Assembly (NCBI GenBank): GCA_964022095.1
Contig: CAXHZO010000010.1
Span: 16,010 to 80,009 of the forward strand
Reading direction: 5' to 3'
Length of the DNA: 64,000 nt
Source: an uncultured Arcobacteraceae bacterium
GTDB lineage: Bacteria; Campylobacterota; Campylobacteria; Campylobacterales; Arcobacteraceae
In this document: positions 4,351 through 31,708 of the stretch, piece after piece
How positions within the stretch are numbered: the stretch's first letter is position 1
How the letters are laid out: each line of letters starts with the position of its first letter
Translations under genes and position numbers: made by a program
The notes under the pieces: generated by a model
What the model saw: only the letters and a program-made list of their open reading frames with translations
Database searches by the model: none
What the model was told of the DNA's origin: nothing

Positions 4351-6033
4351 TCATTCCCCAAAAATGTTAAATAATATGATTTTCAAATCATCTTTCATTT
4401 GGTCATTTAACTCTTTTTCATTTGAGTATAAATAAAATGGTACAGTATTTCTCATAGAGTATTTTAATCTTTTTCTAAGAGTTGAGATTTCATCTAAATT
4501 TATTAATTCAATTCCATCATATAAATAAAACTCTTTTTCAATACCTAATCTAAAAGATACTGTTTGATAAGCAAAAAAAGTATTAGGAAGTTCATTTTCC
4601 CACTTTTTTATAAAACTATCTAATTCTTTTTGAAGTTTTTTTAATCTATTAGGAGTTATATAACCAAAGCTTTCTCTAAATTTATATCTCTCAATTGTTG
4701 TAAAGTTTAATACTTTATAAAATTCATTTAGATTTTTCCAAGGACTTCTAAATCTTCTTTTTCCAAACAAAACCTCTTCAAAGCAATACATATATTTGAT
4801 ATCTTCTTGGCTTAAGACTTTTTTATCTTTTATCTCAAAGTATTTATTTTTAAATAGTGAGATTAACCAGTTTTCATCAAGAAGTGATATTGTATCAAGC
4901 TCTTTTTGTTTGTTTTTATTTTGAAAACTCCAAAGCATTGATATATTTTCAGAAATTTTTTCACCCAATACTTGGTCATCAAAATATTTTGTTGAGAGGT
5001 ATTGCACTACATTTTCAAGTAAAGTATCAGTTTTTGCAATACCATGATTGAATATCACTTTTTTGTAAAGGTTAAATCTCATCTCAAGCATATGTTCAAT
5101 ATCAATTAAACTCATATCAAAGAAGCTTAATAAAAAGTTTTTATCTTTTTTCACCAACACTGATTGTTTAGTAATTCTTATATGATCATTTGGCCCTGTT
5201 ATATAACCACTTGCAAGCATATCTCTATTTATGTAATCTAATCTATCAGCATCAACTGTGCCATCTATAAAGCTATGTAATACTTTAAAGTCAAAGCCTT
5301 TGTATGTTTTTTCTTCAAGTATCAAAATAGCAAGTTCTTTTATTAGTTTTAAAAACTCTAAATCAGTATCTTTTTTTACTAAATCAAATAGCTCATACTC
5401 AAATAAAAGTTTTATATGCTCTTTCCCTATAGCTTCATGAAGTACATCTTTTCTATTATTTGTAATCTCATTATAGATACTTAAAAATTTTGCTTCTTTT
5501 TCACAAAGTGCTTTTAGCTTCTTTTCTTTTTGTTTTATTCTTTGATACACCTTTTCAAGTGCATACTCAACTTGGTGAGAAAATGGTAAATGTCCAACAT
5601 CATGAAGTAATCCTACAACTCTGATTGTTTGTAAAAAAATAGTATAAACAATTCTTTGCGATTTTGATCTTGTAGGTATTGTAAATTGATATAGTGCTTT
5701 GTTATCAAAATACTCCATATCATCTAAATCAATATTTATATTTTTTTCTTCAAGTAGTTTTTTTATAACTTTTTTTAATGATTTTAAAAAATCATCTTTT
5801 GTAGATTTATCAGCATTTAATAATGCATTTTTAAACATAAATGAGGCTAAGTGCATAGTCCCTAAACTATGAATAAACCTCTTGGTTGTAATTGATGGAT
5901 ACGAAAAATATGCAAGGGCATTTTGAGTAATAAATTGTAATCTATTTACAATCTTAGTTTGAAGAATTTTATCTTCAAGCTTTGTATACTCAATATGATT
6001 GTAAATAGTGTCGTTTATAAGTCTATTTTGTAT
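4351..6033 (-). CDS. HD-domain phosphohydrolase (SAMHD1/dNTP triphosphohydrolase-like); probable non-canonical ATA start
   Basis: The frame extends upstream of the ORF-track Met at 5856 through INDTIYNHIE...NRLQFITQ...RFIHSLG; also LLHDVGHLPFSH and DADRLDYINRD; AGGAG lies 6 nt before ATA at 6033. Confidence 0.8.
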   Translation of the reverse strand: MQNRLINDTIYNHIEYTKLEDKILQTKIVNRLQFITQNALAYFSYPSITTKRFIHSLGTMHLASFMFKNALLNADKSTKDDFLKSLKKVIKKLLEEKNINIDLDDMEYFDNKALYQFTIPTRSKSQRIVYTIFLQTIRVVGLLHDVGHLPFSHQVEYALEKVYQRIKQKEKKLKALCEKEAKFLSIYNEITNNRKDVLHEAIGKEHIKLLFEYELFDLVKKDTDLEFLKLIKELAILILEEKTYKGFDFKVLHSFIDGTVDADRLDYINRDMLASGYITGPNDHIRITKQSVLVKKDKNFLLSFFDMSLIDIEHMLEMRFNLYKKVIFNHGIAKTDTLLENVVQYLSTKYFDDQVLGEKISENISMLWSFQNKNKQKELDTISLLDENWLISLFKNKYFEIKDKKVLSQEDIKYMYCFEEVLFGKRRFRSPWKNLNEFYKVLNFTTIERYKFRESFGYITPNRLKKLQKELDSFIKKWENELPNTFFAYQTVSFRLGIEKEFYLYDGIELINLDEISTLRKRLKYSMRNTVPFYLYSNEKELNDQMKDDLKIILFNIFGE

Positions 6034-6042
6034 AATGTTCTC

Positions 6043-7419
6043 CTAATCTTTTCTTTTTTCAAATATTCTTTCTGTAAATTGTGCAAATTTACCTCTTACT
6101 GCTTTTTCAAGTTCAATTGCAAACATTTTTAGCTCAGGATGCTCATAGTTTGTTTGCTTTAAAAGTGTTGTTAAACCATTATTATATTTATTTAAATAAA
6201 GGTTATCAATTTGTCTATTTGAACCAATAACAACTCCCATACAACTCTCATCAAGCCTTGATAGTATTAGTTGTGTTGTTTTTTCACTACTATTTTGCCA
6301 CTCATCCATAATAACAATTGCACTAGATAGTGTTCTACCCCTTGCTTCTCCTGGCCATAATGTTTCAATACAATATTTAGATTCAAGCTCACTGATTTTT
6401 GATTCTATTGATTCTTGATTCTCTTTATTTTCACTTTTTTTTAGATGTTTTTTTGCAATAAACTCTAAAGTATCTTGTAATGCCATATTATAGATTCTAA
6501 ATTTTTCATCATTTCCTGCAAGATAACCAATATCTGCACCTTTATCAAGTGACTCAATAGAGTTTCTAACATAAACAATTTTATCATAATAACCTAAATC
6601 GATAAGCCTCATAGCACTAACAATTGACATAAGAGTTTTACCACTACCTGCTTTTGCATCAATTACTAGTAAATCATACATATTCGATAGTATTGCTTTT
6701 GTAAATAGTTTTTGTTTTAGGTTTACTGGCCTTACATTTAATGCTTTAAAATCATTTTCTTTTAATGTATCAATTCTTTTATCATGAATTATTGCATATT
6801 GTGTATTTCCATCGGCACTTAAAAATTCATAAGAAAAGTTTTGGAATTCATACTCTTCATCAATAGTTTTAATATCTTTATTATCTAAACTATTAAAAAT
6901 CGATGAGTCTAAATCAAATTGTTTTACAAAGTTAAACTTTGGAACTGTAGATTTATCATCATGAAGAGTTTCTGCTTTTATACTTTTAAAGAGTGCAAAA
7001 GTTCTAGCATAAACATCAAGTGATAAGAAAATTGTTTGAGAACCTTTATAGTAATCTCTTGCAATACTTGCAACTTCTATTATTCTTTTATCATTTGATT
7101 CAGAAATATGAATTTGTTCAATTTGAGTTTCATATGCATCTTTTGAAATAATATCAAGATTTATTTCATCATTAAAAAGTTTCACAACTTTAAAGCCAAG
7201 TTTATAATCTACTTCTTTAATTTTCATCTTTGCTAATAGTCTTGCAAACTCTCTTGAATAGTATCCTAGTTCATTAGTAAGTTTCTTTTTATCCTCTAAC
7301 TCAAGAAGAACTGTTTCAGGAATAACAATGTGATTAGTTTTATTGTCAGATATTCGATTTAGGTTTTGAAGATTTTGTAAGATGATATTTGTATCTACTA
7401 CATATACTTTTTCTTTCAT
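6043..7419 (-). CDS. PIN-PhoH (PhoH2/YlaK-like) protein
   Basis: N-terminal VVDTNI PIN motif, AGSGKT Walker A, RGRTL, MDEWQN, QID; start could be 7419 or 7434. Confidence 0.9.
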   Translation of the reverse strand: MKEKVYVVDTNIILQNLQNLNRISDNKTNHIVIPETVLLELEDKKKLTNELGYYSREFARLLAKMKIKEVDYKLGFKVVKLFNDEINLDIISKDAYETQIEQIHISESNDKRIIEVASIARDYYKGSQTIFLSLDVYARTFALFKSIKAETLHDDKSTVPKFNFVKQFDLDSSIFNSLDNKDIKTIDEEYEFQNFSYEFLSADGNTQYAIIHDKRIDTLKENDFKALNVRPVNLKQKLFTKAILSNMYDLLVIDAKAGSGKTLMSIVSAMRLIDLGYYDKIVYVRNSIESLDKGADIGYLAGNDEKFRIYNMALQDTLEFIAKKHLKKSENKENQESIESKISELESKYCIETLWPGEARGRTLSSAIVIMDEWQNSSEKTTQLILSRLDESCMGVVIGSNRQIDNLYLNKYNNGLTTLLKQTNYEHPELKMFAIELEKAVRGKFAQFTERIFEKRKD

Positions 7420-7512
7420 AAAAAATTGTATCATAACAATTGTTACAAATTAGATACAAGATAGTATATTTAATAGTCTATTAGATTTACTAAAAGACTT
7501 AGGATAAAAATC

Positions 7513-8022
7513 CTAAGCTTTTGCAAATTTTATTAATTGTTCAATCATATCCTCTGCCGCTTTTTCATTTAGAGGTTTTTCATATGTAGTTAATATTTCT
7601 CTTGCAAGTATATTTGCTCCTAAGTGTTGATACATAATTCTCATTGCTTGAAGACCCTTTTGACCTCCACCACCTGAGTGTGTTGCTAGAAGTACAATCT
7701 TGTGATTAAATGCATCTCTCCAATCTTTTGTAGATCTTGATGTCCAAGCCATTGCATTGTTTAATACAGGTGGCATTACCCCATTGTATTCAGGTGCAAT
7801 TATAATAAATGAATTTAGAGATAAAATTTTTTGTGCTAAATCTAATGCATTTTCTGGTATTCCATTTTTCTCTTCTTCTTTTGTACTATATAAAGGTAAC
7901 TCTAAATCCACTAAATCTATTAATTCTACATTTTCACAATGTTTTAAAGCTATCTCTTCAAGTTTCTTTCCTAGTTTTAAGTTATTAGTTGAACTTGAAA
8001 CTAAAATTCCTATTTTTGCCAT
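7513..8022 (-). CDS. NADPH-dependent FMN reductase
   Basis: PEYNGVMPPVLNNAMAW, SGGGG. Confidence 0.9.
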   Translation of the reverse strand: MAKIGILVSSSTNNLKLGKKLEEIALKHCENVELIDLVDLELPLYSTKEEEKNGIPENALDLAQKILSLNSFIIIAPEYNGVMPPVLNNAMAWTSRSTKDWRDAFNHKIVLLATHSGGGGQKGLQAMRIMYQHLGANILAREILTTYEKPLNEKAAEDMIEQLIKFAKA

Positions 8023-8172
8023 AATTTATTTCCTTTAATAATCTATAAAATAAGATAGATTATATCTTTTTTTTCTTTTATATTGTATAATATGAAATAA
8101 CAGTTTTTTTGAAGCAGAATTAAAACTAAAATTGCTATAATATGACCTTAAATAGGTAATAGGTGGGCTAAT

Positions 8173-10086
8173 ATGATTCAAGACAGAGAAAAACAATTAT
8201 TAAATATAATCAAATATACTCCAATGATGATAATAATTGTTATTGCTACCCTTTTTACATTATTTCTTTATTTTGAGAATAAAAAAACATTCAATTCACA
8301 AAAAGCAGAAATAGAAAAAAATTATGTTATTGATAATAAAATCAAAATAAAGACAGAAATAGAAAAGCTTGAAAAACTAATCTTACATAAACAAAAAAAT
8401 ACAATCAATAAATTAAAAGAAAATATAAAACAAAGAGTATATGAATCACATAGTATTGCAACAGGAATTTATAATACTTATAAAGATACAAAAACAAAAA
8501 AAGAAATACTTGAACTAATCAAAACAAGTTTAGGAGAAGTACGATTTAATAATGGAAGAGGGTATATTTTCATGGATGATGCACATGGGAATAAGATTCT
8601 TCATTCTGTTGATAAAAGTATCGAGAATAAAAACTTTTACAATTACACTGATCCAAAAGGTTATTATTTTTTTAGAACTATTGTTCAAACAATAAAAGAT
8701 AAAACTGAAAGATTTGATGAATACTATTGGTATAAGCCAAATACAAACAATAAAAAAATAGCAAAAAAAATCTCTTTTTATAAATATTTTGAACCTTTAA
8801 ATATGGCAATTGGCACAGGTGAATATATTGAAGATTTTGAAAAAACAGTCCAAAAAGAAATCTTAGAAACTATTGAAATCTCATCAACTAACCCTTCAAG
8901 TTATATATTTGTATTAAGTTATGATGGTAAATATTTATCTCACATAAAAAAAGAGTATATAAATAAAAATGCTTTTTATTCAAATGATACTACAGATAGT
9001 AAAAATGATGTTTCAAGTGTAATTACAATAGCAAAAAATGGCGGAGGCTATTACTCTTATATTCAAAATAAAAAACCTAATACAACTGTATCATCAAAGA
9101 AAGTTAGTTATGTAAAAAGTATAGATACTTGGCAGTGGGTAATAGGTACAGGTTTTTATGAAGATGATGTTTTAGGGAAAATATTAAATAAGAAAAAAGA
9201 GATTGATGATAAGTTTAATGAATACATAAATGACTTTTTAATCATTATTGTAGTTTTAACATTTATTTTATTAATTGCATCTATTTATGTTTCAAAAGTT
9301 TTAAAAGAGCTATTTTTTAATTATAAAGAACAACTTCACAAAAAACAAAATATGCTATTCCAGCAATCAAAAATGGCTGCAATGGGAGAAATGATAGGTA
9401 ATATAGCTCATCAATGGAGACAACCTTTATCTACTATTACAACAGCTTCAACTGGTATGAAACTACAAAAAGAATTAAATGGGGAATTAGATACTGAATT
9501 ATTTAATAACTCTGTTGATAAAATTAATGCATCAGCACAACATTTATCAAAAACAATTGATGATTTTAGAAACTTTTTTAGTCCTAACAAAAAAGAATCA
9601 AAGTTTTATTTAAAAGATATTTTTGCAACTACTTTGGATTTAGTATCTGCACAATTTAATGCAAAAGAAATAAAGATAATAAAACATATTGATAATGTTG
9701 AATTGTTTACTTATGAAAATGAGCTAATTCAAGCTTTAATAAATATTTTAAATAATGCAAGAGATGAATTAATTAAACTCCCAAGAGGTAAAGATAGACT
9801 AATATTTATTGATACTTCTTTAAATGATAACAATGGTACAACTATTGAAATTAAAGATAGTGCAGGAGGTATTGATAACTCAATTATGAATAAAATATTT
9901 GAACCATACTTCACAACTAAGCATAAAAGTAATGGTACAGGAATAGGTTTATATATGACTAAAGAGATTATTGTTAAGCATTTACAAGGGGAACTAGAAG
10001 TAGAGAATTGTGTGTATGAATATAATGGTAATATTTGTAATGGTGCATTATTTAGAATAAAAATAAAAAATATTGAAGATAAATAA
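8173..10086 (+). CDS. Cache-domain sensor histidine kinase
   Basis: Two TM segments, tandem sCache (GTGEY, GTGFY), IAHQWRQPL H-box, N/G1/F/G2 boxes. Confidence 0.92.
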   Translation: MIQDREKQLLNIIKYTPMMIIIVIATLFTLFLYFENKKTFNSQKAEIEKNYVIDNKIKIKTEIEKLEKLILHKQKNTINKLKENIKQRVYESHSIATGIYNTYKDTKTKKEILELIKTSLGEVRFNNGRGYIFMDDAHGNKILHSVDKSIENKNFYNYTDPKGYYFFRTIVQTIKDKTERFDEYYWYKPNTNNKKIAKKISFYKYFEPLNMAIGTGEYIEDFEKTVQKEILETIEISSTNPSSYIFVLSYDGKYLSHIKKEYINKNAFYSNDTTDSKNDVSSVITIAKNGGGYYSYIQNKKPNTTVSSKKVSYVKSIDTWQWVIGTGFYEDDVLGKILNKKKEIDDKFNEYINDFLIIIVVLTFILLIASIYVSKVLKELFFNYKEQLHKKQNMLFQQSKMAAMGEMIGNIAHQWRQPLSTITTASTGMKLQKELNGELDTELFNNSVDKINASAQHLSKTIDDFRNFFSPNKKESKFYLKDIFATTLDLVSAQFNAKEIKIIKHIDNVELFTYENELIQALINILNNARDELIKLPRGKDRLIFIDTSLNDNNGTTIEIKDSAGGIDNSIMNKIFEPYFTTKHKSNGTGIGLYMTKEIIVKHLQGELEVENCVYEYNGNICNGALFRIKIKNIEDK

Positions 10087-10130
10087 AATATAAGTGATAT
10101 AAAATAAAAAGTATTTAAGGGGATTTGTAA

Positions 10131-10152
10131 ATACATGGTGCGAATGGTGAGA
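10131..10152 (+). repeat. att site (duplicated tRNA-Leu 3' end), left boundary of element 1
   Basis: Identical to 18108-18129. Confidence 0.95.
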
Positions 10153-10489
10153 TTTTTAAAAATAAATTTTAAAAACCATAGAACACCATAAAAAAGGACT
10201 TCTTGAAAAATAAAAAAACTAAGAGTTAGTATATTATAGTTATTTTTTGTACAGTCTTATCACAAATTTGATACTTACTATTAATTAAATTTTTTTTGAA
10301 TTAAAAAAATATTATAAACTTAATGTAATCAAGATAATAATTAGTTATTGTAATAAAAATAGTTACATATAACTTTACTAAAATTCACTTAATAAAAATA
10401 CTACTTAACTATATTTCATTATTTTTAAATAACTAATTTTTAATTTTTAAAATAATACAATGGTATTTATATAATCTATTGGAGAATAA

Positions 10490-13400
10490 ATGACAATATC
10501 ATTTTTACATATATCAGACTTACATTATGAATCTAGAAAATCAGAAACTTTTGAGGAATTAAGAAATAAAATTTTAAGTGTATTAAGTAATAGCAATAAA
10601 AGTATAAATTTTATTGTTTTTTCTGGTGACTTAGTTCAAAAGCCTTTAGAAAATGAATCTAATAATGCTTTTGAGACTTTTATAGAACCAATTATTAAAC
10701 AATTTGGTTTAGATAATAATTCATTAATTTTTACTAATGGTAATCATGATGTTGATATCACTAAAAGAGATAAATATGCTTTTAGTGGTTTTTTAAATCA
10801 TCTCAATAGTCCAGAAAGAAAAAATGTAATAAAAGATTTATTGAATTTTGATATAAATTTTCCTGAACACCAAGATTTTGTAGAGTTTATAGGTTCTCTA
10901 AACCAAAATATAGTTATTGAGAATAATGTGTATTATTCGACTTATAAAAAGAATGTTAATGGTGTGGAAATAGGTTTTGTCTCAATAAATTCAAGTTTAT
11001 TAATGCAGACGAGTAAAAAAGATTTTGGTAATCTTTTAATTATTGAAGAAATATTAGAAAAAGCTATGAAAGATATAATCTCTACAAACATGAAAATTCT
11101 TAATATTCATCACCCCCTTAATTGGTTTAAAAATTATAAAGAAATAGAAAAAATTATATTAGATAAATTTAATATTGTATTTTATGGACATGAGCATGAA
11201 CATGATGGTAAATATACTATTGATACATATAATAGAGATATTTTAAATTTACATGCCCAATCTATGTATCATCAATCTGACTTACCTGATGGATTTGCCA
11301 TTTATGATTACAATATACATGATGAAGAAATAGAAATAACAAAATATATGTATAGTAAAGCGCATAATAATTATGACAAATTAGATACAAATAAAATACA
11401 AAATATTGACTTACTTAAAAAATCTAAATCAATTAGAAATCAAAATATATGTACAAAAATAAAAGAACCTTTAAAAGAACATATTAATAAATTTTTGGCA
11501 ATAAATTTGACATCAGATATACAAAAAGAAGATATTGAAGAAATATATACACATCAAAAAATTACCGAAGATGATGAAAATAATTCTGATGAAAGAAAAA
11601 AACATCTTGAAATGAATGAAAAAGAATTTTCTCTTAAGGAGTTAATTGAATCTAATGATAATTTACTATTTTTAGGTAAAAAGGAAATTGGTAAGACAAC
11701 TTTATTAAATAGTATTAATATTAATTACATTAGTAATTATGGTGAAAAAATCCCTATTTATATCTTATCAAGTGAATTAATTCATGAAAAGAGCGAATAT
11801 ATAATTTTTGCAAAAATCTCAGATTATTTAAAGAAATTTTATGGTGAGCATAAATTTAAAATTAATGATATGATAAAAGAAAAGAGATTTTTACTATTAA
11901 TTGATAATATTCAATACTTAGAAAATGAAATGGTTGATAAGTTGCTATCTTTTGAAAATCAAATTTTTGCAACATACAGAATTAAAGATTATGACAATAT
12001 TTATTCAAAACTTAATCATTTTAATTTAAAAAGTAATAGTTTAAACAAGTTTAAGAAACTCAAGATACATCCCTTTAGACAAAAAGATAGTAATGAACTT
12101 ACAAAAAAAATTGTTCCAATAGAAACATCTAAGCAAATTTCATCTAATGTAAAAAAAGCAATGAATAAATTAAGTTTGCCATCAAATCCTTTTTTAACTA
12201 CATTATTAATATGGATGTATAGAGATAAAATTGAAATAAAGGATAGTGAACCAGAAATAATTGAAGTACTTTTAGATTATTTACTAGAAAAATCTGATGT
12301 AAAAAGAAATTTTGATTCAAGAATTAATTTTGAGAACAAAAAAAATATATTATCTGCAATTGCTTATAAATTTTATGAACAAAAAAGTTTATCTTTAGAT
12401 GAAAATATAATTTTAGAAACAATTATTACTTATATAAAAACATATTTTGCTTTTCAAATTAATGCAAAAGATATATTAGACTATTTTTATGATAGAAGAA
12501 TTTTTATATGTAATTTAGGACAAATACAATTTACATATAGAGTCTTTTATTATTACTTTATTTCTCTATTTATGATAAAAAATAATGATTTTTATAAGAC
12601 AATTTTTGATAATGAGTTATTAATTACAAATATGCATGATGAACTTAAATTTTATTCAGCATTAAAAAATGATGATTTGTCTGCAATTAGTAAAATCGAA
12701 AATATTATTAGTAAATCCATATTTAACAAAAAATTAAAAAAAGTTAATATTGAATTACCTATGAATTATACTTTTACTATCAATGATTTGGGAGAATTAC
12801 ATCCTAAACAAACTATAAGTGAAGAAAATGAATCTGAAGATTTAGAAATAAAAATATCAAATGATGAAAAAGACTTCATTGATAAAATTGATTCAATAAA
12901 CACTGATCATAGAGAAAATCATATTGAAAGGTTTAATAATGAAAACGAGTTGGTAAGTATATTTCTCCAAAATAAAGAAGAATATTTTGTTTTAAATTTA
13001 ATTTATTCTGAATTTATTAAAAATTTAACAAATGTTAATGTAAAAATACAGAATGAATATGTTGTGAATTCAATTAGAAATATAAGTAATATTACAAGAT
13101 ATTGGTTTTCTAAAATTAATGATGAAGAAGTAAGTCAAAGATTTTTAAATAGAAAAGTAAAGGAATTTAAAATTGATTTAGATTTAAAAAGAATTGTTGA
13201 TTTAAAAGAACTTATAAAATCAAATATTTTAGCTATTTTTACAGAAGTAATAGAAATTAGTTTGTGTACACCAACTATGATAGAAATTTACAAAGAGAAT
13301 TATAATAAATCAGATGATATTTTCCTTAAATACTATTTTTTAATATTTATTATTGAAACTGATGAAGAAAACATTTTTCTAGAATACATAAAGTCTTTTA

Positions 13401-13630
13401 TTAAACATTCAAAAATGAATAAAACTTTTATATATATTTTGTATGGAAAACTTGTTCATGATTTTGTTAATAAGAATTTTTCTTCAAAAACAAAAAATGA
13501 GATTAAGAGTATTTTGATTTATCTTGAATTAAATCTAAATTCAGCTATAAATGATAGTTCAGGTACTAATAAATCAATAGCTAAAAACAAAGTAGAAAAT
13601 GACTTAAAAATAAAAAAAATGTTAAGTTAA
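10490..13630 (+). CDS. Metallophosphoesterase fused to a STAND/NACHT-like NTPase (candidate anti-phage protein)
   Basis: HISDLH, FSGDL, GNHD, HHP and GHEH calcineurin-like motifs; GKKEIGKTT Walker A and LLLIDN Walker B; long helical C-terminus. Confidence 0.85.
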   Translation: MTISFLHISDLHYESRKSETFEELRNKILSVLSNSNKSINFIVFSGDLVQKPLENESNNAFETFIEPIIKQFGLDNNSLIFTNGNHDVDITKRDKYAFSGFLNHLNSPERKNVIKDLLNFDINFPEHQDFVEFIGSLNQNIVIENNVYYSTYKKNVNGVEIGFVSINSSLLMQTSKKDFGNLLIIEEILEKAMKDIISTNMKILNIHHPLNWFKNYKEIEKIILDKFNIVFYGHEHEHDGKYTIDTYNRDILNLHAQSMYHQSDLPDGFAIYDYNIHDEEIEITKYMYSKAHNNYDKLDTNKIQNIDLLKKSKSIRNQNICTKIKEPLKEHINKFLAINLTSDIQKEDIEEIYTHQKITEDDENNSDERKKHLEMNEKEFSLKELIESNDNLLFLGKKEIGKTTLLNSININYISNYGEKIPIYILSSELIHEKSEYIIFAKISDYLKKFYGEHKFKINDMIKEKRFLLLIDNIQYLENEMVDKLLSFENQIFATYRIKDYDNIYSKLNHFNLKSNSLNKFKKLKIHPFRQKDSNELTKKIVPIETSKQISSNVKKAMNKLSLPSNPFLTTLLIWMYRDKIEIKDSEPEIIEVLLDYLLEKSDVKRNFDSRINFENKKNILSAIAYKFYEQKSLSLDENIILETIITYIKTYFAFQINAKDILDYFYDRRIFICNLGQIQFTYRVFYYYFISLFMIKNNDFYKTIFDNELLITNMHDELKFYSALKNDDLSAISKIENIISKSIFNKKLKKVNIELPMNYTFTINDLGELHPKQTISEENESEDLEIKISNDEKDFIDKIDSINTDHRENHIERFNNENELVSIFLQNKEEYFVLNLIYSEFIKNLTNVNVKIQNEYVVNSIRNISNITRYWFSKINDEEVSQRFLNRKVKEFKIDLDLKRIVDLKELIKSNILAIFTEVIEISLCTPTMIEIYKENYNKSDDIFLKYYFLIFIIETDEENIFLEYIKSFIKHSKMNKTFIYILYGKLVHDFVNKNFSSKTKNEIKSILIYLELNLNSAINDSSGTNKSIAKNKVENDLKIKKMLS

Positions 13631-13646
13631 TTATTATAATTATAGT

Positions 13647-14642
13647 ATGAATAAATTATCAATAGAAAACACATTACTAGAATTCAATAATGAAATTAAA
13701 AAAACTGGAAGTATTGAAAAGGCATTTGTAAATTATCTTAATGAACAATTTAAAGAATTTGATGGATTAATTGATTATGAGAATTACAAAAAACAGATAT
13801 TTGGCCAATTTAAAACATCTCAAACTTTACATTTAATTTTCTCAAAAAAAGAAATTCATAATACTTTGGCTAATACTTTATCTCAATATGATTATGAATT
13901 TCTAGATGAACAAATAGAAGTATTTAATTATTTAGTTCAATATGATAAAGCTTGTATAATTGATGATCAAAAAAAATATTACAGATTAAATACACTCTTA
14001 TGTAAAGTATTTGAACACTTAGAAGCTTTAGAAAAATGGCATGAGCTTGAAAAATCAGAAGATATACTAAAAAAAGGAATAGCTAGAACTCCTCATCCTA
14101 TTGTTTCAGATGCTATTAAACCAAGAATAAAAACGATAAATGATTCTTTAGAATTAAATCCTATACAATCAAATGAAATAATGTTAAATATCTATAATGA
14201 GTTTGAGAGTAATCCTTTAGAAATAACTGCTATGTATAATTCATTGCAGCATTTAAAAAAAGAAAATTTCTTAATTGATGAAAAGCAAAATTTAGAAACT
14301 TTATTTAATCAACAAACTTTTTTAAACTCTGCAAAAATACTGGAAGATACACATATCTTTAATAGTTGTAAAATTACATCATATTTATTATATAAAGAAA
14401 AAACTATTATTGATTTATCCTTACAATTAAATAAACATATCCCTTATACTCAATTATCAAAATATATGAATACTCTAATAGATTCTTTTTTTGATTATGA
14501 ATATAAATCTAATTTATCTAAAAAACATATTGAAAAAGAAGTCCAATTAAAAACACATTTTAATAATTTAGAAATACTAGAATTTAGAACTAAAATGAAC
14601 TATCAAGAACATCCTATATTTAATGATATTAAATTTGGCTAG
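13647..14642 (+). CDS. Hypothetical protein (331 aa)
   Basis: Long ORF 16 bp downstream of the STAND gene; no motif recognised. Confidence 0.7.
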   Translation: MNKLSIENTLLEFNNEIKKTGSIEKAFVNYLNEQFKEFDGLIDYENYKKQIFGQFKTSQTLHLIFSKKEIHNTLANTLSQYDYEFLDEQIEVFNYLVQYDKACIIDDQKKYYRLNTLLCKVFEHLEALEKWHELEKSEDILKKGIARTPHPIVSDAIKPRIKTINDSLELNPIQSNEIMLNIYNEFESNPLEITAMYNSLQHLKKENFLIDEKQNLETLFNQQTFLNSAKILEDTHIFNSCKITSYLLYKEKTIIDLSLQLNKHIPYTQLSKYMNTLIDSFFDYEYKSNLSKKHIEKEVQLKTHFNNLEILEFRTKMNYQEHPIFNDIKFG

Positions 14643-14754
14643 TGACTCACTAGTTAAATTAACTATCTAATAAAATCTATTTCATATAAACTTCCCTTAT
14701 CGATATCGAATAAAACAAAGAGCTCTTTGTAAATTAAATTACAAAGGATTAAAA

Positions 14755-15018
14755 ATGATTACATTAAAAGGTCATTTACTAAATATTATTCCAAAAACGG
14801 AATATAAAAAAGATGGAGAAAATTTAGCAACTCCAGTAAAAGCTAAACTACAAATTTTAGTAGAAAATAAAAGAGCAAATGGAGTCTTAGTTAAAGACTT
14901 ACATACTATTTCTATTCCTGATGAAAAGATTCTTATGTACAAAGATAAGATAGGTAAAGAAGTAAGTGTAGAAGTTGGAATTATGTCAAAAGATAAAATT
15001 AGTTTCTATGGTGTCTAA
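14755..15018 (+). CDS. Small putative single-stranded DNA-binding (OB-fold, inovirus pV-like) protein
   Basis: 87 aa, beta-rich pattern, directly upstream of the rolling-circle Rep; SD AAGGA. Confidence 0.6.
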   Translation: MITLKGHLLNIIPKTEYKKDGENLATPVKAKLQILVENKRANGVLVKDLHTISIPDEKILMYKDKIGKEVSVEVGIMSKDKISFYGV

Positions 15019-15084
15019 AGAAGAAAAAAGACTTATTGTAAGGCTACTTACAAAAAGTTTTTTTCTTCTTTGACAATTAAAAAA

Positions 15085-15110
15085 TAAGGGGTTTATAGTA
15101 ACACCCCTTA
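15085..15110 (+). other. Candidate double-strand origin (nick-site hairpin)
   Basis: TAAGGGGT-TTATAGTAAC-ACCCCTTA, 8-bp stem, 24 bp before the rep start. Confidence 0.6.
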
Positions 15111-15134
15111 CTAAACGTCAAAGAAAGGATAAAG

Positions 15135-16504
15135 ATGAATGAAGTTAAAAAAATCTTCGGTATAGATTCACTTTATTACTTCTGTGAATCAAATGATGAT
15201 TATGATGATTTGTATCTAGAAATATTAGACCAAATAGAAGATATTAAAGGTAAATACCAAAAGAAAGAAATTGAGTTTGAAAATAGAGATATTACTATTA
15301 AAGTAAATGATGTACCTTTACACTTTCTTGGTAAAGCTGAAGGATATCATTGGTTTGTAGATACTAATGAATATTTTAAAATAGGTTTTAAAGATAAATA
15401 CAAAAATAGAGGTTTAAATGATATTAGAGTTCAACTTCTTGGAGTTGGTATTTATTCAATAGGAATAAAATCACTAATTGAGTTTATAAATAAAGAATTA
15501 CTAAAAGAGTATGTAACTGGATACTTTCCAATTACTAGAGCAGATTTAAACTGTTTTATACAATATGACTTTAGCTTTGTAACTAAAGAGATGTTTGTAT
15601 CTAAAAAAAAGAAATATTCAACTATTAGTGAAATAGGTAGTTCAACTACAACACAAACTTTGTATGTAGGAAAAGAGCCATTTAAACTAAGACTTTATAA
15701 TAAAAAAGAAGAGTTAAAAAAGTCAAAGAAAAAAAATTTGATGTATGAATACTTTTCAAATCATGGATTTGATTTAGAAGATGAAATATTTAATGTTGAA
15801 TTTGAAATACATAGAACTCATATAAAACTATTTGGAATAGATTCATTAGATGATTTCTTTAAACATGCAGTTAGATTATTTCAATTTAGTATGAATGATA
15901 TAAGACTAATAGATATTAATTCATTAAGTGATAATGCAGTAGAGCATAACAATAAAAGAAGAGCAGATACTTTACCAATATGGGATGAGATACAAAGAGA
16001 GTTTAATTTAAAAGAATTTTTACAATCTTCTTTACCATTAGAAAGAATTAAAAGAAAAATATCTATTTATGATGATAATAAGTTTGAATATGAGTTTATA
16101 GTTTTAATTAGAAAAGCAATAATAAATGATTTAAATCTAGATAGAGACTATTTAAACCATTTATATGAAAAAGGAAAAGATAGTTTAAAAAGACTACTAC
16201 ACCAAAGCAATTAAAACAAGATTATATAGATATAGAGTTTGTACATGAAGATGGAAAAGTAGAGAAATATAGACAATTAGATAATGGAGAGATAATTAAA
16301 CCATTAAGAACTTTAACTGTAGCAAAACTGAGTGATTATGATTTACATAGATATTTAGAAAAAGTTACCCAAGTTCAACACTTATCTACTAGAAACAAAC
16401 ATATATTTGAGGTAGCTTATAAAGAGGCTATGCATAGAGGATTAATTCCTAGTATTAATCCTACTGAATCATTAGAAGATGAAGAAGATAGGCTAGATTT
16501 TTGA
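15135..16504 (+). CDS. Rolling-circle replication initiator (Rep_trans family); 0-frame stop at 16214, -1 frame continues to 16504
   Basis: ITRADL, TLYVG, RLYNKK (putative catalytic Tyr), NVEFE motifs; T-TTA-AAA at 16184-16190 precedes a 104-codon open -1 frame. Confidence 0.8.
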
Positions 16505-16584
16505 TACTTTTTTAAAAAGTATATACAGACATAAGGGAATTTATTTCCCTTGCTTAAACAGATTATGAAAGGAGTGTAAAAACA

Positions 16585-16890
16585 ATGGAAATATCATTTG
16601 AGAATTTAAAAAAAATTGACACTATATTAGAAAAATTAGAACTACTAGAAAATAAAGTAACTAGTGAAAAAAGGTGGCTTAATACAAAAGAAGCTTCACA
16701 TTATTTAGGTTATTCACAAGACCATATACACAAACTAAAAGAGAATTATTTTATTGAAAGTAAACACTATTTTAAAAAAGCTGGAAGAATTTTATTTGAT
16801 AAACTAGAACTTGATATATGGGTTAAAAACTCATATTGTGAAGTTAATCCAGGTCAAATCGTAGATTCTATATTGAAGGATTTAAAATGA
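16585..16890 (+). CDS. Excisionase-like HTH protein
   Basis: RWLNTKEASHYLGYS...GRILFDKLELDIW, directly upstream of the integrase. Confidence 0.85.
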   Translation: MEISFENLKKIDTILEKLELLENKVTSEKRWLNTKEASHYLGYSQDHIHKLKENYFIESKHYFKKAGRILFDKLELDIWVKNSYCEVNPGQIVDSILKDLK

Positions 16891-16953
16891 TTTTTAGTAA
16901 AATAAAAAGTTCAAGAAGTTCATTTTTATTGGTGTTTTTTCTAAGGAGAAAAC

Positions 16954-18039
16954 ATGATTAATATGACACAACCAAAAATTTACACTAGAGGTAATAAACT
17001 TTGGGTAAATTTCAGTTTTGAGGGAAAATATATTAGAAAGTCTTTAAATTTAGAAGACAACAAAACTAATAGAAAACTTGCCCAAAACCAAATAATTCCA
17101 CAATTGATATTAAAAATATATAGTGGAGAGTTCTTTGAAAAAAATATTGTTCCCATTTTAAATGAATATTCTAGTGTTTCTTTTGAGCAACATAGACATG
17201 AAAGAAAGATTACAACTAATACGGACTATCAAAATATTTACAATAAGCATATCAAACCAACTTTTGGAAATAGAAAGCTTGATAAGATTAGAGTTAGTGA
17301 AGTTAATATTTGGAAAAATAAACTTTATAAAGAACTTGGACTTTCTTCAAAGAGAGTAAATGATATTAAAAAGATATTTTGTACTATATTAGAAGATGCA
17401 GTAAGAGATGAAATTATAGTTTCTAATCCCGTTTCAAAGTCTAGACCACTTCCAGTTCATCAAGAAAAAGAGATTCATCCTTTTTCTTTAGAAGAAATAA
17501 AACTTATTATAAATACTGCAAAAGGTCAGGATAAGAATTTGATAGCAACTCTTTTTATGACTGGTATGAGAACAGGAGAGCTAATAGGTCTTAAATGGAA
17601 AGATATAGATTTTGATAAAAGAGAAATTTCAATAAGTCGAACTATTGGTAGAGGTATTGAAGGTACTCCAAAAACTATGTCAAGTTATAGAACTATTCCT
17701 ATTTTAGATTCTTTATATCCATATTTAGTAAATCAATATACTTTGACTTCAGAAGAAAATACTTATGTATTTTTGAATGATAAAGGAAATCACTATTTTG
17801 ATTCTAAAAATATTAGAGCAGGGCTTTGGAAAAAAATTTTAAAACATTCAGGTGTTAAGTATAGAACGGTTTATCATACTAGACATACTTTTTGTTCTAT
17901 TAACTTACAAAATGGAGAAGATATTATTTGGATATCAAAAGTTTTAGGACATAAAAATCCTAGAGTTACATTAGAAAAATATTCAAAATATATTCCTACA
18001 AATGGAAACAAAAAAACAATTTTTGATAGTTTAAATTAG
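16954..18039 (+). CDS. Tyrosine integrase
   Basis: TGMRTGE, PKT, YHTRHTF, LGH, KY catalytic residues; adjacent to att. Confidence 0.95.
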   Translation: MINMTQPKIYTRGNKLWVNFSFEGKYIRKSLNLEDNKTNRKLAQNQIIPQLILKIYSGEFFEKNIVPILNEYSSVSFEQHRHERKITTNTDYQNIYNKHIKPTFGNRKLDKIRVSEVNIWKNKLYKELGLSSKRVNDIKKIFCTILEDAVRDEIIVSNPVSKSRPLPVHQEKEIHPFSLEEIKLIINTAKGQDKNLIATLFMTGMRTGELIGLKWKDIDFDKREISISRTIGRGIEGTPKTMSSYRTIPILDSLYPYLVNQYTLTSEENTYVFLNDKGNHYFDSKNIRAGLWKKILKHSGVKYRTVYHTRHTFCSINLQNGEDIIWISKVLGHKNPRVTLEKYSKYIPTNGNKKTIFDSLN

Positions 18040-18107
18040 TACTCGTACAATTTTATCACAGTTGAAAAATTTTACTATTGAAAAGCCGTTGTATCGGGGA
18101 TTAAAAG

Positions 18108-18129
18108 ATACATGGTGCGAATGGTGAGA
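18108..18129 (+). repeat. att site, right boundary of element 1 (overlaps the tRNA-Leu 3' end)
   Basis: Identical to 10131-10152. Confidence 0.95.
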
Positions 18130-18199
18130 ATCGAACTCACACTCCGAAACCGGAATGGGATTTTAAGTCCCACGCGTCTACCTATTCCGCCACACTCGC
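18113..18199 (-). tRNA. tRNA-Leu(TAA)
   Basis: GCGAGTGTGGCGGAATAGGTAGACGC...GGGAC-TTAAAA-TCCC, long variable arm, GTTCGATTC, CCA end. Confidence 0.96.
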
Positions 18200-18570: not shown

Positions 18571-18945
18571 TTAGAAATTAAATGCTAAATTTAGTTTTGT
18601 TTGCTCTTTTTCATGATTATGTGAAATAAAAATCGATGTATTATTGTTTACATAGTTAGATAGTATTGCACCACTTAAAGATCCAGCTATGTCAAAAGCT
18701 AAATCACTTGTTGAAAATTTATCATCTGTTAATTCTTTTGCAAGTCCAGGAATTGTTCCTAATAATGTTCCTAATGCAATTTTATCAAAATCATCATATT
18801 GATAATACTCTTTATGTATTATTGTTTCAGCTGTAAAACCAAATGCTGCTGATAATACGAAATGTTTACCTGAATTTGTATCTGCTGCATTTAAACTGAT
18901 AAATGAACTAAGTCCTAAAATTAAAATAGATTTTTTTATATTCAT
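18571..18945 (-). CDS. Exported hypothetical protein (YfiM/DUF2279-like)
   Basis: Signal peptide; KHF..SA, KELTD..FSTSDLAFDIAG pattern; C-terminal Phe. Confidence 0.6.
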   Translation of the reverse strand: MNIKKSILILGLSSFISLNAADTNSGKHFVLSAAFGFTAETIIHKEYYQYDDFDKIALGTLLGTIPGLAKELTDDKFSTSDLAFDIAGSLSGAILSNYVNNNTSIFISHNHEKEQTKLNLAFNF

Positions 18946-19103
18946 CTTCTTACCTTATATTTTTTTATTTATTATAGCATTTTAATAATTAGATGAGTTC
19001 TTTTTGATCCAAAATTCTTATTTTTAATAATATAGTTTAAATTATCTTGTTTTTATGGTATTATTTGTTAAAATATAAAATTATTTATTTAAAAAGGTCA
19101 GAT

Positions 19104-20723
19104 ATGTTTATGGAGCATTTAGCTTTGACTTATAAGTGTCACAGCTCAATAGGAAATAGTTTAGATTTAAAAAAGATGATTGAAGAAGTCTTACATACAT
19201 TTGTTGATGAAACAAATGCATTATCTGGCTATTTCTTTTTAATTGATGAAAATCATAATTTACATAAATATTTATCATATAAAGAAATATCTTGTTTTGA
19301 TGAAAATGAACTAAAAGATCATTTAAGTACTTTTAATATTTATGATTGTCCAAATAATAATTATAAAATCATAATTATGCCACTTACAAATGGTGCTATA
19401 TTTTTAGTATATGAAAACAAAGATATAAACTTTGAGTACATAGGTTCAATGTTCCAAGATTTAATTGTAAAATTAAATATTAGTATTGATGCATGTTTAA
19501 ATGTTCAAAGAATGAAAAACAAAAATAAAATGCTAAAACACTTAACACAAGAGTTAAAAGACCAACAAAAAGAGCTTATAGATTCAGATAAGTATAAAAG
19601 TAACTTTTTAGCAAATATGAGTCATGAATTGAAAACACCACTTAACTCAATCATAGTTTTATCTTCAATTATGAGAAAAAATAAAAACAATGCTTTAAGT
19701 GATGAGCATGTTAAAAACTTAAACATTATAAATAGTTGTGGAAACGATCTATTATATTTAATAAATGATATTTTAGATATTTCAAAAATTGAAGCAGGTG
19801 AAGTTTCACTAAGTTTAGCAAAAGTAAACATAAATGACTTAATTTCTTCACTTGTAGATGAAATGCGACCTATTGCTATTGAAAAAAAGCTAAATATAGA
19901 GTTTAATTGTCTTTTAGATGAAATAAACTTATTAACTGATTCTCATAGAATAAAACAGATAATTAAAAATCTTTTGAGTAATGCGATTAAATTTACTGAA
20001 GAGGGTTTAATTGATGTGATTTTAGAAGAGAATGCAAATGACATTTCCATAAAAGTTGTTGATCATGGTATTGGAATTGCAGAAGAAAAACTAAATCATA
20101 TTTTTGATAGATTCAAACAAGCAGATGGAAGTACAACTAGAAAATATGGGGGTACAGGTTTAGGTCTTGCTATTTCAAAAGAGTTAGCTAATTTATTAGG
20201 TGGTGATATAAAAGCCTTTAGTAAATTAGGTGAGGGAAGTAAGTTTGAAATAATTCTGCCTAAAAAAACAGATATAAAAAATATTTCTGATGATAGTGTT
20301 TCAATATCATCTCAAAATAATAGTGAAGAACAAGAGATAGAAGAGATTGTATTTTTTGATATGGATGCTGCTAATACAAGTGAAAATATGCAAAGTAAGA
20401 TTCAAAATGTAGTTCTTTTAAATTGTGATAAATTAACAATGTTTCCTATAGTTGTCCAACTAAAAAAATATGATATTGAATTAACTCAAGTTGATTCTTT
20501 AACTGATACTTTTGAACTTTTAGAAAAAGAGTATCAAGATTTAGTTGTTATAGATAAAGAAAATACTAAAACTGCCATTGATGAATTTTTAAACTATTGT
20601 AATGAACAGAATTCACAAGTTTTAATTTTATCAAATGATGATACTGAAGATGAAAAACATATAAATAAAGCAAATGTAAAAGAAAATTTAACAAAAGAAA
20701 TTTTAAAAAGATTAGGAAAATAG
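19104..20723 (+). CDS. Cytoplasmic hybrid-type histidine kinase with a degenerate C-terminal receiver
   Basis: FLANMSHELKTPLN, NLLSNAIKFT, DHGIGI, GGTGLGL; start chosen from SD AAAGG. Confidence 0.9.
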   Translation: MFMEHLALTYKCHSSIGNSLDLKKMIEEVLHTFVDETNALSGYFFLIDENHNLHKYLSYKEISCFDENELKDHLSTFNIYDCPNNNYKIIIMPLTNGAIFLVYENKDINFEYIGSMFQDLIVKLNISIDACLNVQRMKNKNKMLKHLTQELKDQQKELIDSDKYKSNFLANMSHELKTPLNSIIVLSSIMRKNKNNALSDEHVKNLNIINSCGNDLLYLINDILDISKIEAGEVSLSLAKVNINDLISSLVDEMRPIAIEKKLNIEFNCLLDEINLLTDSHRIKQIIKNLLSNAIKFTEEGLIDVILEENANDISIKVVDHGIGIAEEKLNHIFDRFKQADGSTTRKYGGTGLGLAISKELANLLGGDIKAFSKLGEGSKFEIILPKKTDIKNISDDSVSISSQNNSEEQEIEEIVFFDMDAANTSENMQSKIQNVVLLNCDKLTMFPIVVQLKKYDIELTQVDSLTDTFELLEKEYQDLVVIDKENTKTAIDEFLNYCNEQNSQVLILSNDDTEDEKHINKANVKENLTKEILKRLGK

Positions 20724-20724
20724 T

Positions 20725-21852
20725 ATGGAAAAGTTTAGAATATTATTAGTTGATGATGTACCTGAAAATATTTACTCTTTAAAAATGATGATTGAAGATA
20801 GTTTTGATGTAGAGATTTTTTCAGCTTTAAGTGCCCAAGAGGGTATGGAAATTTTAATGAAAGAAAAAATCCACCTAATTCTTACTGATGTTCAAATGCC
20901 AGAAATAGATGGATTTGAATTTGTAGAATATTTAAAGAATATTGATAAAACAAAAGATATTCCAGTTATTTTTATTACAGGAATTTATGATAAAGATGAA
21001 TACAAAACAAAAGGTTATGATTTAGGTGCTATTGAATATATTACTAAACCAATTCATGATGTATTATTAAACTCTAAATTAAAAGTTTATATTGATATTT
21101 TTGAAAAACAAAAAGAAGATGAAGAAGAGATTGTTGCAAAAGATGAGCTTTTAATGCATCAATCGAAAATGGCAACAATGGGTGAGATGATTGGAATTAT
21201 TGCTCATCAATTAAAACAGCCATTAAATATCTTATCTTTATATTGTAATGATGTAAAAGATTCTTATAAATATGAAGAAATTGATGATAAGTTTATTGAT
21301 GATTTTTCGAAAAATACAAAAGAACAAATTGATTATTTAAGTGAAACAATTGATGGATTTAGAGACTTTTTTAATCCAGATAAACAAAAAAGAGTTTTTG
21401 AAATTGAAAAAATCATAAATAAATCAGTAAAATTATTATCAAATAGAATAGAAACAGAAAAAATTACATTAAACATAGAAGTAAAAGAAGAAAAAGTTTA
21501 TGGTGTAGAAACAGAATTAGAACAAGTTATTATCAATATCTTAAATAATTCAATTGATGCTTTTATTGAAACACAAGTTGAGCTAAAAGAGATTAATATT
21601 AGTGTATTTGTTAAACAAAACTACACAATCTTAGTTATGGAAGATAGTGCAGGTGGAGTTCAAGAAGAAAAATTAGAAAAACTATTTGACCCATACTATA
21701 CAACAAAAAGTACAGGAACTGGAACAGGCCTTTATACTGTAAAGTTAGTTATTAAAAATAGTTTAGGAGGTGATTTAAAAGTTAATAATAGTGAAAAAGG
21801 CTTAAGGTATATTATTGCATTACCTCAAAAAGATATTAAGAAGAAGGAGTAG
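20725..21852 (+). CDS. Receiver-histidine kinase hybrid
   Basis: LLVDD, LTDVQMP, KP; IAHQLKQPL; GTGTGLY. Confidence 0.9.
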   Translation: MEKFRILLVDDVPENIYSLKMMIEDSFDVEIFSALSAQEGMEILMKEKIHLILTDVQMPEIDGFEFVEYLKNIDKTKDIPVIFITGIYDKDEYKTKGYDLGAIEYITKPIHDVLLNSKLKVYIDIFEKQKEDEEEIVAKDELLMHQSKMATMGEMIGIIAHQLKQPLNILSLYCNDVKDSYKYEEIDDKFIDDFSKNTKEQIDYLSETIDGFRDFFNPDKQKRVFEIEKIINKSVKLLSNRIETEKITLNIEVKEEKVYGVETELEQVIINILNNSIDAFIETQVELKEINISVFVKQNYTILVMEDSAGGVQEEKLEKLFDPYYTTKSTGTGTGLYTVKLVIKNSLGGDLKVNNSEKGLRYIIALPQKDIKKKE

Positions 21853-31609: not shown

Positions 31610-31708
31610 GGGAGATATGTGTACCTGGTGGGCACCACAGGCTTCAACCCTGATTGAGAGAATATGTGTATATTCTCTGGGAGGTTCGATTCCTTCATCT
31701 TCTCGCCA
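31610..31708 (+). tRNA. selC: tRNA-Sec(TCA)
   Basis: CAGG-CTTCAAC-CCTG anticodon arm with TCA, long variable arm GAGAATAT...ATATTCTC, GTTCGATTC, GCCA end; divergent from selA. Confidence 0.92.

Follow-up and report, generated by a model that had tools for sequence, protein, structure and literature searches.

Small integrative rolling-circle elements with an exchangeable defense slot: a probable family in environmental Campylobacterota

Small, integrase-bearing elements that carry defense genes and depend on a helper for their movement are a kind that is already known and that is represented, for example, by the PICI, P4 and PICMI satellites. Helper dependence is also typical of RS1 and TLC, which possess a replication protein (Rep) together with a small single-stranded DNA (ssDNA)-binding protein, lack morphogenesis genes, and use CTX-type and fs2-type Vibrio phages as helpers for packaging. 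Rolling-circle initiators of the Rep_trans type include those of the pT181 type, namely RepD/RepDE of Staphylococcus aureus and RepSTK1 of Geobacillus (structures 4cwe, 4cwc and 4cij), and in pT181 the replication origin lies inside the rep gene. Here we describe an element in a 64-kb stretch of DNA from an uncultured Arcobacteraceae bacterium (hereafter the window; G+C content ~24%). The segment at positions 10131-18129 probably belongs to a family of integrative rolling-circle elements that are small (4.6-12.9 kb) and occur in environmental Campylobacterota. The element and its relatives keep a backbone of a position-conserved gene termed orfX, an OB-fold protein gene, a hairpin, a Rep_trans-type initiator gene, an excisionase-like gene (xis) and a tyrosine integrase gene, and a slot between attL and orfX holds different anti-phage systems in different members, in the window the candidate system PDC-S60. 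What is new in this family is the phylum, a Rep_trans branch that is invisible to Pfam, the fixed arrangement of OB-fold gene, hairpin and rep, and a hypervariable orfX.

In streptococci, 45 of 144 integrative mobilizable elements (IMEs) encode MobT/Rep_Trans proteins beside tyrosine integrases at gene 3' ends, many of them without a coupling protein, according to an excerpt of a review (PMC5704250). The elements described in that excerpt are likewise small, insert at gene 3' ends by a tyrosine integrase, encode a rolling-circle-type protein, lack mating-pore genes and carry variable passengers, but they belong to another phylum, whereas the family described here has a Rep subfamily that is too divergent for Pfam, a conserved OB-fold gene, a hypervariable orfX and tRNA genes as targets. 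In Pseudomonas, islands with an integrase and defense genes are found downstream of the tmRNA gene and are transduced by jumbo phages (PMC12595487, abstract). These islands also have direct repeats, a tyrosine integrase, defense cargo, no genes for autonomous transfer and a helper-dependent movement, but the abstract reports no rolling-circle module, and target site and host phylum are different. From the same bacterial family as the window, three small islands of Arcobacter butzleri RM4018 (ABGI1-3) have been described, which have 21-25-bp repeats and terminal integrases; ABGI1 lies at tRNA-Leu, ABGI2 contains type I restriction-modification (RM) genes, and ABGI3 has a size of 4.9 kb and a role that was called unknown (PMC2147049, excerpt). 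The comparison with these islands is by description only: the excerpt reports no Rep, and its authors saw no plasmid-like functions.

The segment 10131-18129 has been inserted into the genome where a tRNA-Leu(taa) gene has its 3' end. Exact 22-bp direct repeats, which extend to 34 bp at 88% identity, enclose 7,977 bp (Table 1). In G018, a genome of the same genus that has no Rep, the tRNA-Leu(taa)-Phe-Tyr-Gln cluster comes directly after the sensor-kinase gene that is orthologous to the one flanking the insert (74% DNA identity), and because of this empty site the 7,977 bp between the repeats must be an insertion. Exact 22-bp att repeats at tRNA-Leu had been noted before in a sequence-only reading of this DNA, and repeat search, tRNA call and empty site now agree on them. 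The locus thus combines the integrase domains, the repeats duplicating a tRNA 3' end and the empty site in a relative that characterize tRNA-targeting integrative elements. The insert consists of six genes, all on the plus strand, with products of 1046, 331 (orfX), 87 (orf87), 359 (Rep-like), 101 (helix-turn-helix, HTH) and 361 aa (integrase). The earlier statement that Zot/pI, coat, capsid, terminase and relaxase genes are missing is in line with searches of Pfam, PHROGs and NCBIfam, in which none of the six proteins had such a match.

Table 1. Features of the inserted element and of its target site (positions in the 64-kb window)
Feature	Positions	Strand	Basis or remark
attL	10131..10152	.	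left one of the two exact 22-bp repeats
cargo, 1046-aa candidate anti-phage protein	10490..13630	+	PADLOC PDC-S60
orfX, 331-aa protein	13647..14642	+	position-conserved, hypervariable sequence
orf87, 87-aa OB-fold protein that may bind ssDNA as part of the replication module	14755..15018	+	predicted structure and position
A-tract/T-tract hairpin	15017..15071	+	just 3' of orf87; intrinsic terminator and/or candidate single-strand origin
conserved stem-loop, candidate double-strand origin	15085..15110	+	25-50 nt upstream of rep start
rep, 359 codons with the catalytic part; rolling-circle initiator, divergent member of the Rep_trans superfamily	15135..16214	+	profile and fold; ended early by frameshift
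rep, C-terminal part, ~95 codons, -1 frame	16184..16504	+	reading frame open past the stop at 16214
xis-like HTH protein, 101 aa (putative excisionase/recombination directionality factor)	16585..16890	+	weak matches and conserved position
tyrosine integrase, 361 aa	16954..18039	+	Pfam and PHROG matches
attR	18108..18129	.	right 22-bp repeat copy, overlaps the 3' end of the tRNA
tRNA-Leu(taa), integration target	18113..18199	-	heads Leu-Phe-Tyr-Gln tRNA cluster

The element has relatives with the same gene order. A scan of one genome per species revealed the core of orf87, rep, (xis) and integrase gene in 28 loci from Arcobacteraceae, Sulfurospirillum, Sulfurovum and related metagenome-assembled genomes, with orf87 upstream of rep in 25, the xis-like gene at its position in 22, and the integrase gene downstream of rep in 27 loci. 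A tRNA gene lies within 800 nt past the integrase gene in 14 of the 27 loci that have one, and the targets include tRNAs for Leu, Asn, Arg, Ser, Met and Ala, with at least seven tRNA species in total. Direct repeats delimit twelve relatives (4,636-12,880 bp), of which ten are located at the 3' end of a tRNA gene. The slot is located between attL and orfX, and its content changes from member to member. Strong PADLOC defense matches were obtained for seven of the 12 delimited elements, and each of them has a different system: DRT3 (Drt3a 7e-90, Drt3b 9e-194) with PDC-S73 in L009, a Type II-A retron (reverse transcriptase 9e-96, NDT 1e-23) in L014, Lamassu (LmuA, LmuB) with an HNH effector in L020, a TIR-NLR protein (E = 0) in L015, an Eco47II-type RM system with an AriA/GajA-like ATPase in L010, a Type I methylase with specificity subunit in L012, and an ATPase-Toprim protein in L005. 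The other five carry NERD (L025), pentapeptide and other proteins (L008, L028), a single open reading frame (ORF) without match (L013), or no cargo, as is the case for L024, the smallest member, which at 4.6 kb consists of the backbone only. An exchange of the slot content is directly evident from L013, as this element resides at the same tRNA-Leu(taa) cluster as the window element and has an 82%-identical integrase, but differs in its cargo. Virion, terminase, relaxase or type IV secretion system (T4SS) families were not matched at E ≤ 1e-4 by any of 43 scanned non-core ORFs. The scan covered all of the 45 non-core ORFs except two in L005 that encode 65-68 aa, and it did not extend to a further pair of small ORFs that occupy the place of xis. 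The sequence-only reading had offered, as one of two options, an integrative rolling-circle replicon with a swappable defense slot, and the shared core and variable cargo seen in the comparison of Rep and integrase homologues, which it had suggested as a check, support this description. Morphogenesis genes, which should be normal in homologues if the element were a deleted prophage, were found neither in the 12 delimited relatives nor, by tblastn with Zot, pIV and Rep of an inovirus-like prophage from the same genome, near Rep in the 28 loci. The suspicion that the family is undescribed also stood, as full-text literature searches yielded no description of it.

The initiator itself escapes a direct annotation, as the window Rep has no match in Pfam, PHROGs, PADLOC or NCBIfam. 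Its affiliation becomes apparent from its relatives. There are 345 homologues, nearly all of ~448 aa, and a profile search of 1.8 billion representatives yielded 639 relatives. Rep_trans is weakly touched by four of 19 close homologues (best E 0.0017), while among 64 distant relatives (~360 aa) 27 match Rep_trans at E ≤ 1e-3, two of these above the gathering score of 29.6 bits, and 29 match Rep_trans or Phage_CRI. A profile of 38 family and distant Rep sequences detected the solved rolling-circle initiators 4cwe (E = 5e-6), 4cij (2.6e-4) and 4cwc (2.3e-3), and in the alignment with 4cwe the family motif Y-N-K-K falls on R-I-Y-N-K-K of RepDE and the acidic motif N-V-E-F-E-l-k-R on R-V-E-I-E-L-K-R, so that the similarity to the pT181-type initiators includes both the Y-N-K-K and the acidic V-E-x-E motif. 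Neither Y188 nor K190 varies among the 38 sequences, and the motif tyrosine is presumably equivalent to the catalytic tyrosine of RepD; all seven invariant columns of the profile are retained in the window Rep. The AlphaFold model (pLDDT 78.7) points in the same direction: the top six PDB matches of a Foldseek search are the six Rep_trans chains of 4cwe, 4cwc and 4cij (E 4e-11 to 1.5e-8, prob 1.0, TM by target 0.53-0.55), and the next PDB match, TBP, follows at E ~1e-2. The Rep_trans fold, a TBP-like pseudo-dimer, is thus present together with the tyrosine and the acidic metal-binding motif, and Rep forms a deeply branching lineage within the Rep_trans superfamily that stays below the gathering score of PF02486, by which Pfam decides on membership. 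In comparison with the pT181-type initiators, identity in structural alignments is ~13-16%, the family has an additional C-terminal domain of ~95 residues, and its gene is located not on a plasmid but on an element that has an integrase of its own and is integrated into the chromosome. The earlier label Rep_trans is therefore correct at the superfamily level, by profile and fold, but has no direct Pfam match behind it. Within the postulated core of SSB-like protein, Rep_trans, Xis and integrase, the integrase is clear, Rep is supported by profile and fold and the OB fold by a model, whereas the Xis matches are weak and orf87 matches no sequence family.

The sequence-only reading had overlooked a frameshift in rep. 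The frame ends at 16214 and continues in the -1 frame, and homologues extend ~90 residues beyond the window ORF. The lesion is a 1-nt deletion: the T run at 16184-16186 lacks one T, and the C-terminal ~95 residues are thereby separated from the catalytic part. In run X10, a related contig contains the additional T, by which the frame is restored (D-S-F-K-K). As the extra T is missing both from the Logan contig of X1, the run from which the sequence probably originates (depth 87.6), and from run X4 of another study (depth 6 at this site), the frameshift is genuine in this strain, and an assembly error was rejected on the same grounds. A programmed -1 frameshifting was also considered, since a T-TTA-AAA heptamer arises at the break. 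However, 19 of 19 homologous loci in which the position could be located have no slippery sequence there, and the homologues are single ORFs, so that such a mechanism is no trait of the family and the break is read as a mutation. With its Rep divided in this way, the copy is probably impaired in replication, and it may be becoming fixed as a defense island. A residual activity of Rep is nevertheless conceivable, because the catalytic part keeps the seven invariant columns and distant relatives are themselves ~360 aa long. In another genome (G104:C19:555222-556557), rep is also split across two frames, and the loss of Rep function is thus recurrent.

Two hairpins are predicted in the 116 nt that separate orf87 from rep (-25.2 kcal/mol, z = -7.2). 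At the place of the first one, directly behind orf87, hairpins with other sequences occur in the related loci that were examined. The second one, at 15085-15110, was found in 25 of 25 aligned loci, has five invariant loop positions, and is present as a single copy within the window. Its stem is conserved as a structure: 81% of the cells are paired, as compared to 68% in shuffles, and the covariation is 0.355 versus 0.129 in shuffled alignments (0 of 500 as high) and 0.06-0.15 in slid controls, with compensatory changes from G-C to C-G in L012 and to A-T/T-A in L025 and L028. An invariant loop on a covarying stem beside an initiator gene is the classic appearance of a rolling-circle nick site, and this hairpin is somewhat more probably the double-strand origin than something else. 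With this assignment, the candidate origin would lie upstream of rep and thus differ in position from that of pT181.

Orf87 has no sequence match in Pfam, PHROGs or a PDB sequence search, and its assignment relies on the predicted structure (pLDDT 80), which supports an OB fold. The top rows of a Foldseek search are SsbB, mtSSB and PriB (prob 0.9-0.99, E 0.02-0.1), VIA-align gave Z values of 7.5-6.2 to editosome OB, SSB and PriB folds over 72-79 of the 87 residues, and the Atlas feature-level lead is Putative_G5P (0.91, 171 shared features). An ssDNA-binding function would be in agreement with this fold.

The cargo protein of the window aligns over almost its entire length with PADLOC PDC-S60 (E = 2e-79; residues 5-1035 of 1046 on model positions 3-1020 of 1027), and reaches 158.7 bits with the NCBIfam equivalog DS8_antiphage, which has a cut-off of 790. 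Its N-terminal part resembles a metallophosphoesterase, and it further comprises a P-loop NTPase and a long region at the C-terminus, with weak Pfam matches to Metallophos_2 and AAA_14. Cargo gene and orfX together cover 10490-14642, i.e. 4.2 of 8.0 kb, in agreement with the earlier estimate that about half of the element is cargo. As to orfX, each of the 12 delimited relatives has a plus-strand ORF of 304-446 aa directly upstream of orf87. By sequence, at least eight groups can be distinguished among these ORFs, with no detectable similarity from one group to another, and family matches were not obtained for them either. The orfX of the window itself has no match in Pfam, PHROGs, PADLOC or NCBIfam and no Atlas lead, and a homologue search found 17 sequences, with the query's own cluster counted in. 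Since the window's type of orfX is present in three loci without PDC-S60, orfX belongs to the backbone rather than to the cargo system. A wastewater contig (run X6, 5,001 nt) is ~98-99% identical over PDC-S60 and orf87 and does not align across the middle of orfX (window 13957-14482), which suggests recombination or rapid change inside orfX.

The tyrosine integrase is unambiguous, with matches to Phage_integrase (82.8 bits at a cut-off of 27.1; 3.3e-23), Arm-DNA-bind_2 and SAM_3 in Pfam and to phrog_1 in PHROGs (3.7e-60). The protein encoded between rep and the integrase gene weakly matches HTH_17 in Pfam (E = 6e-4) and a PHROG annotated as excisionase and transcriptional regulator (E = 1e-4). 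A second xis-like ORF was observed at the left end of the retron-carrying element (L014:702-1037), in addition to the copy between rep and the integrase gene. With respect to arm-type sites, the 8-mer TTATCACA occurs near both ends of the window element (10257, 18053), at a frequency not above chance. In five relatives (L008, L014, L015, L024 and L027), which are mostly located at tRNA-Asn and in case of L027 at tRNA-Ser, TTTGGGCACAATTTGGGCACA-type repeats are present near attL and attR, and these are probably arm-type integrase binding sites. Locus L019 contains an extra integrase gene (18580-19993; 47% identity to that of the window) ~7 kb downstream of the element, preceded by an orf87-like fragment and without Rep, and this may be an adjacent or decayed second element.

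Among 150 other Arcobacteraceae genomes, 25 encode Rep, with as many as three copies in one genome. They represent 11 of the 22 genera that were sampled in addition to that of the window, and most of the copies are intact frames of ~445-486 aa. In a sample of the phylum, 14 of 300 other genomes from six of 14 families have Rep, and it was not found in the two families with the largest samples (0/90 and 0/124). Furthermore, 163 metagenome stretches encode a Rep relative, of which 80 loci were kept, 59 of them being whole contigs, and contigs that are nearly identical to the window element are present in marine runs. The family is thus widespread in environmental Campylobacterota, and apparently undescribed.

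How could such an element multiply and move? The integrase, together with Xis, would excise the element as a circle. Rep would then nick the loop of the conserved hairpin just 5' of its own gene, using the tyrosine of L-R-L-Y-N-K-K, and thereby initiate rolling-circle replication, and the 87-aa OB-fold protein would coat the displaced single strand. Eventually, the integrase would put the circle back at a tRNA 3' end. As the element has no transfer genes, a movement between cells would require a helper or DNA uptake, and a filamentous phage is the favored, albeit unproven, helper. Several observations weigh against this reading of the element. No free circle was found, as the 80 metagenome loci show neither terminal overlaps of ≥15 nt nor a permuted gene order, and Logan contigs of four runs contain no attB or attP joint with long sides, but short-sided joints (20-38 letters), none of them at the att sites. 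None of the listed runs that match the element is an RNA run. The window Rep has no Pfam match of its own, a direct genome-wide search with PF02486 found no Rep_trans, and rep is interrupted not only here but also in at least one further genome (G104). The conserved hairpin overlaps with a promoter-like TTGACA-18-TATAGT (15070-15099), so that a promoter/operator or mRNA-leader structure is an alternative to an origin, although the distance from the hairpin to the upstream hexamer differs among loci. The matches behind the Xis assignment are weak HTH matches, those of orf87 to OB folds are middling (Z < 8, Foldseek E > 0.01), with an OB fold being no proof of ssDNA binding, and PDC-S60 is a candidate rather than a validated defense system, for which the NCBIfam anti-phage model scored far under its cut-off.

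With a filamentous phage as helper, the element would be an inovirus satellite, the Rep and OB-fold protein of which produce coated ssDNA circles that are packaged and exported by the phage. This is conceivable but rather doubtful. A Rep with a small OB-fold protein and without morphogenesis genes is what such a satellite would possess, if the fold of orf87 indeed signifies ssDNA binding, and small dedicated OB-fold proteins are a feature of filamentous phages and RS1; the size of 87 aa and the Atlas lead to Putative_G5P fit, although G5P has no Pfam support in orf87. The sequence-only reading had suggested looking for a helper-type inovirus elsewhere in the genome, and there is indeed an inovirus-like prophage at the end of contig C2 (L033, locus coordinates 4445-10779, minus strand), with an integrase gene, two small ORFs, a Rep of the Phage_GPA/REP_ORF2-G2P type, a pIV secretin, Zot and two further small ORFs; its upstream part is cut by the contig end. 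Zot occurs in nine of the 25 Rep-carrying as compared to 14 of the 125 other Arcobacteraceae genomes (odds ratio 4.5, Fisher p = 0.004, a value that is overstated as related genomes are not independent), but this leaves 16 of 25 Rep-carrying genomes without Zot. Moreover, the Rep of the resident phage belongs to an unrelated family, and the element shares with the assembled part of the prophage no homology or origin, but only short AT-rich matches at chance level (best 17-mer). Orf87 has no second homologue in the genome and follows Rep, not Zot, across the 150 genomes. The Rep family is unmatched in 50,697 phage records (tblastn), and a pattern scan of IMG/VR with A1 or the distant relative P0173 found none. 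RS1, TLC and CTX integrate via XerCD at dif and have no integrase of their own at a tRNA gene, in contrast to the window element with its tyrosine integrase and Xis, and a defense slot also distinguishes this element from RS1 and TLC. A still bolder and less probable version would see in the family ssDNA satellites of filamentous phages that form packageable circles by virtue of their own integrase, a divergent Rep_trans protein and a gene-V-like OB-fold protein, in which orfX matches the lineage to its helper, and which serve as the main shuttle of anti-phage systems in environmental Campylobacterota. If so, they would be the first integrase-bearing, defense-carrying class of inovirus satellites. 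For satellites of the PICI, PICMI or P4 type the replication protein does not fit, as it is a rolling-circle initiator, and terminase, capsid or primase matches were found neither in the window element nor in the 43 non-core ORFs of its relatives; orfX might still be a new kind of hijacking gene.

A transfer by conjugation would be the other way to make use of a single strand. Rep would then be a MobT-like relaxase and the hairpin an oriT, and a co-resident conjugative element would move the strand, in the way that has been proposed for the streptococcal IMEs with Rep_trans proteins. Relatives of Rep_trans indeed serve as relaxases in integrative and conjugative elements of the Tn916, ICEBs1 and ICESt3 types, and the window element shares the minimal layout of these IMEs, but we regard this as improbable. 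The genome, which is 99.99% complete, has no VirB4 (PF03135), the single T4SS marker that was searched, with which other conjugation types could be missed, and with this one marker VirB4 was found in six of the 150 family genomes without enrichment (1/25 Rep-carrying versus 5/125 others). In 72,556 plasmid records, the Rep family is unmatched (tblastn). A conjugative partner is thus not evident for the family, in contrast to the streptococcal elements, and the MobT systems covered by the excerpt cited above (PMC5704250) are those of Firmicutes, in which the coupling proteins are FtsK/TcpA-like. Far less probable still is an immobile remnant of an inovirus or other prophage, from which the structural genes were deleted and into which a defense gene was inserted later. 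The frameshift in rep of this copy and the lack of a free circular form among the 80 metagenome loci would agree with such a decay, but 12 of 12 delimited relatives share the small backbone without structural genes, the smallest one being nothing but backbone, and Rep is intact in most copies. This explanation fails because none of the 43 non-core ORFs has a virion-type match and because tblastn with Zot, pIV and Rep of the resident inovirus detected nothing within 10 kb of Rep in 28 loci, where solely the integrases cross-matched. Several copies per genome and the variety of tRNA target species point to ongoing mobility instead.

Small helper-dependent elements are now regarded as major carriers of anti-phage systems, and the described classes are mostly from Gammaproteobacteria and Firmicutes. 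The probable family of integrative rolling-circle elements proposed here adds for environmental Campylobacterota a compact backbone of four to five genes that is easily recognized and has a defined cargo slot. Because Pfam misses this branch of Rep, the initiator will be overlooked when such elements are annotated in the current way. As the slot contains DRT3, a retron, Lamassu, TIR-NLR and RM systems as well as several unknown genes, it is a place to seek new defense systems, and the conserved hairpin is an origin candidate that can be tested directly. If the link to inoviruses were true, the known biology of filamentous-phage satellites would be widened.

In the surroundings of the insertion, genes of the sensor histidine kinase/response regulator type are found on both sides of the tRNA cluster and the element (8173-10086 and 19047-21852), and the kinase on the left side has many paralogues in a genome of the same genus. 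The window contains, in addition, a tRNA-SeC gene at 31610-31704.

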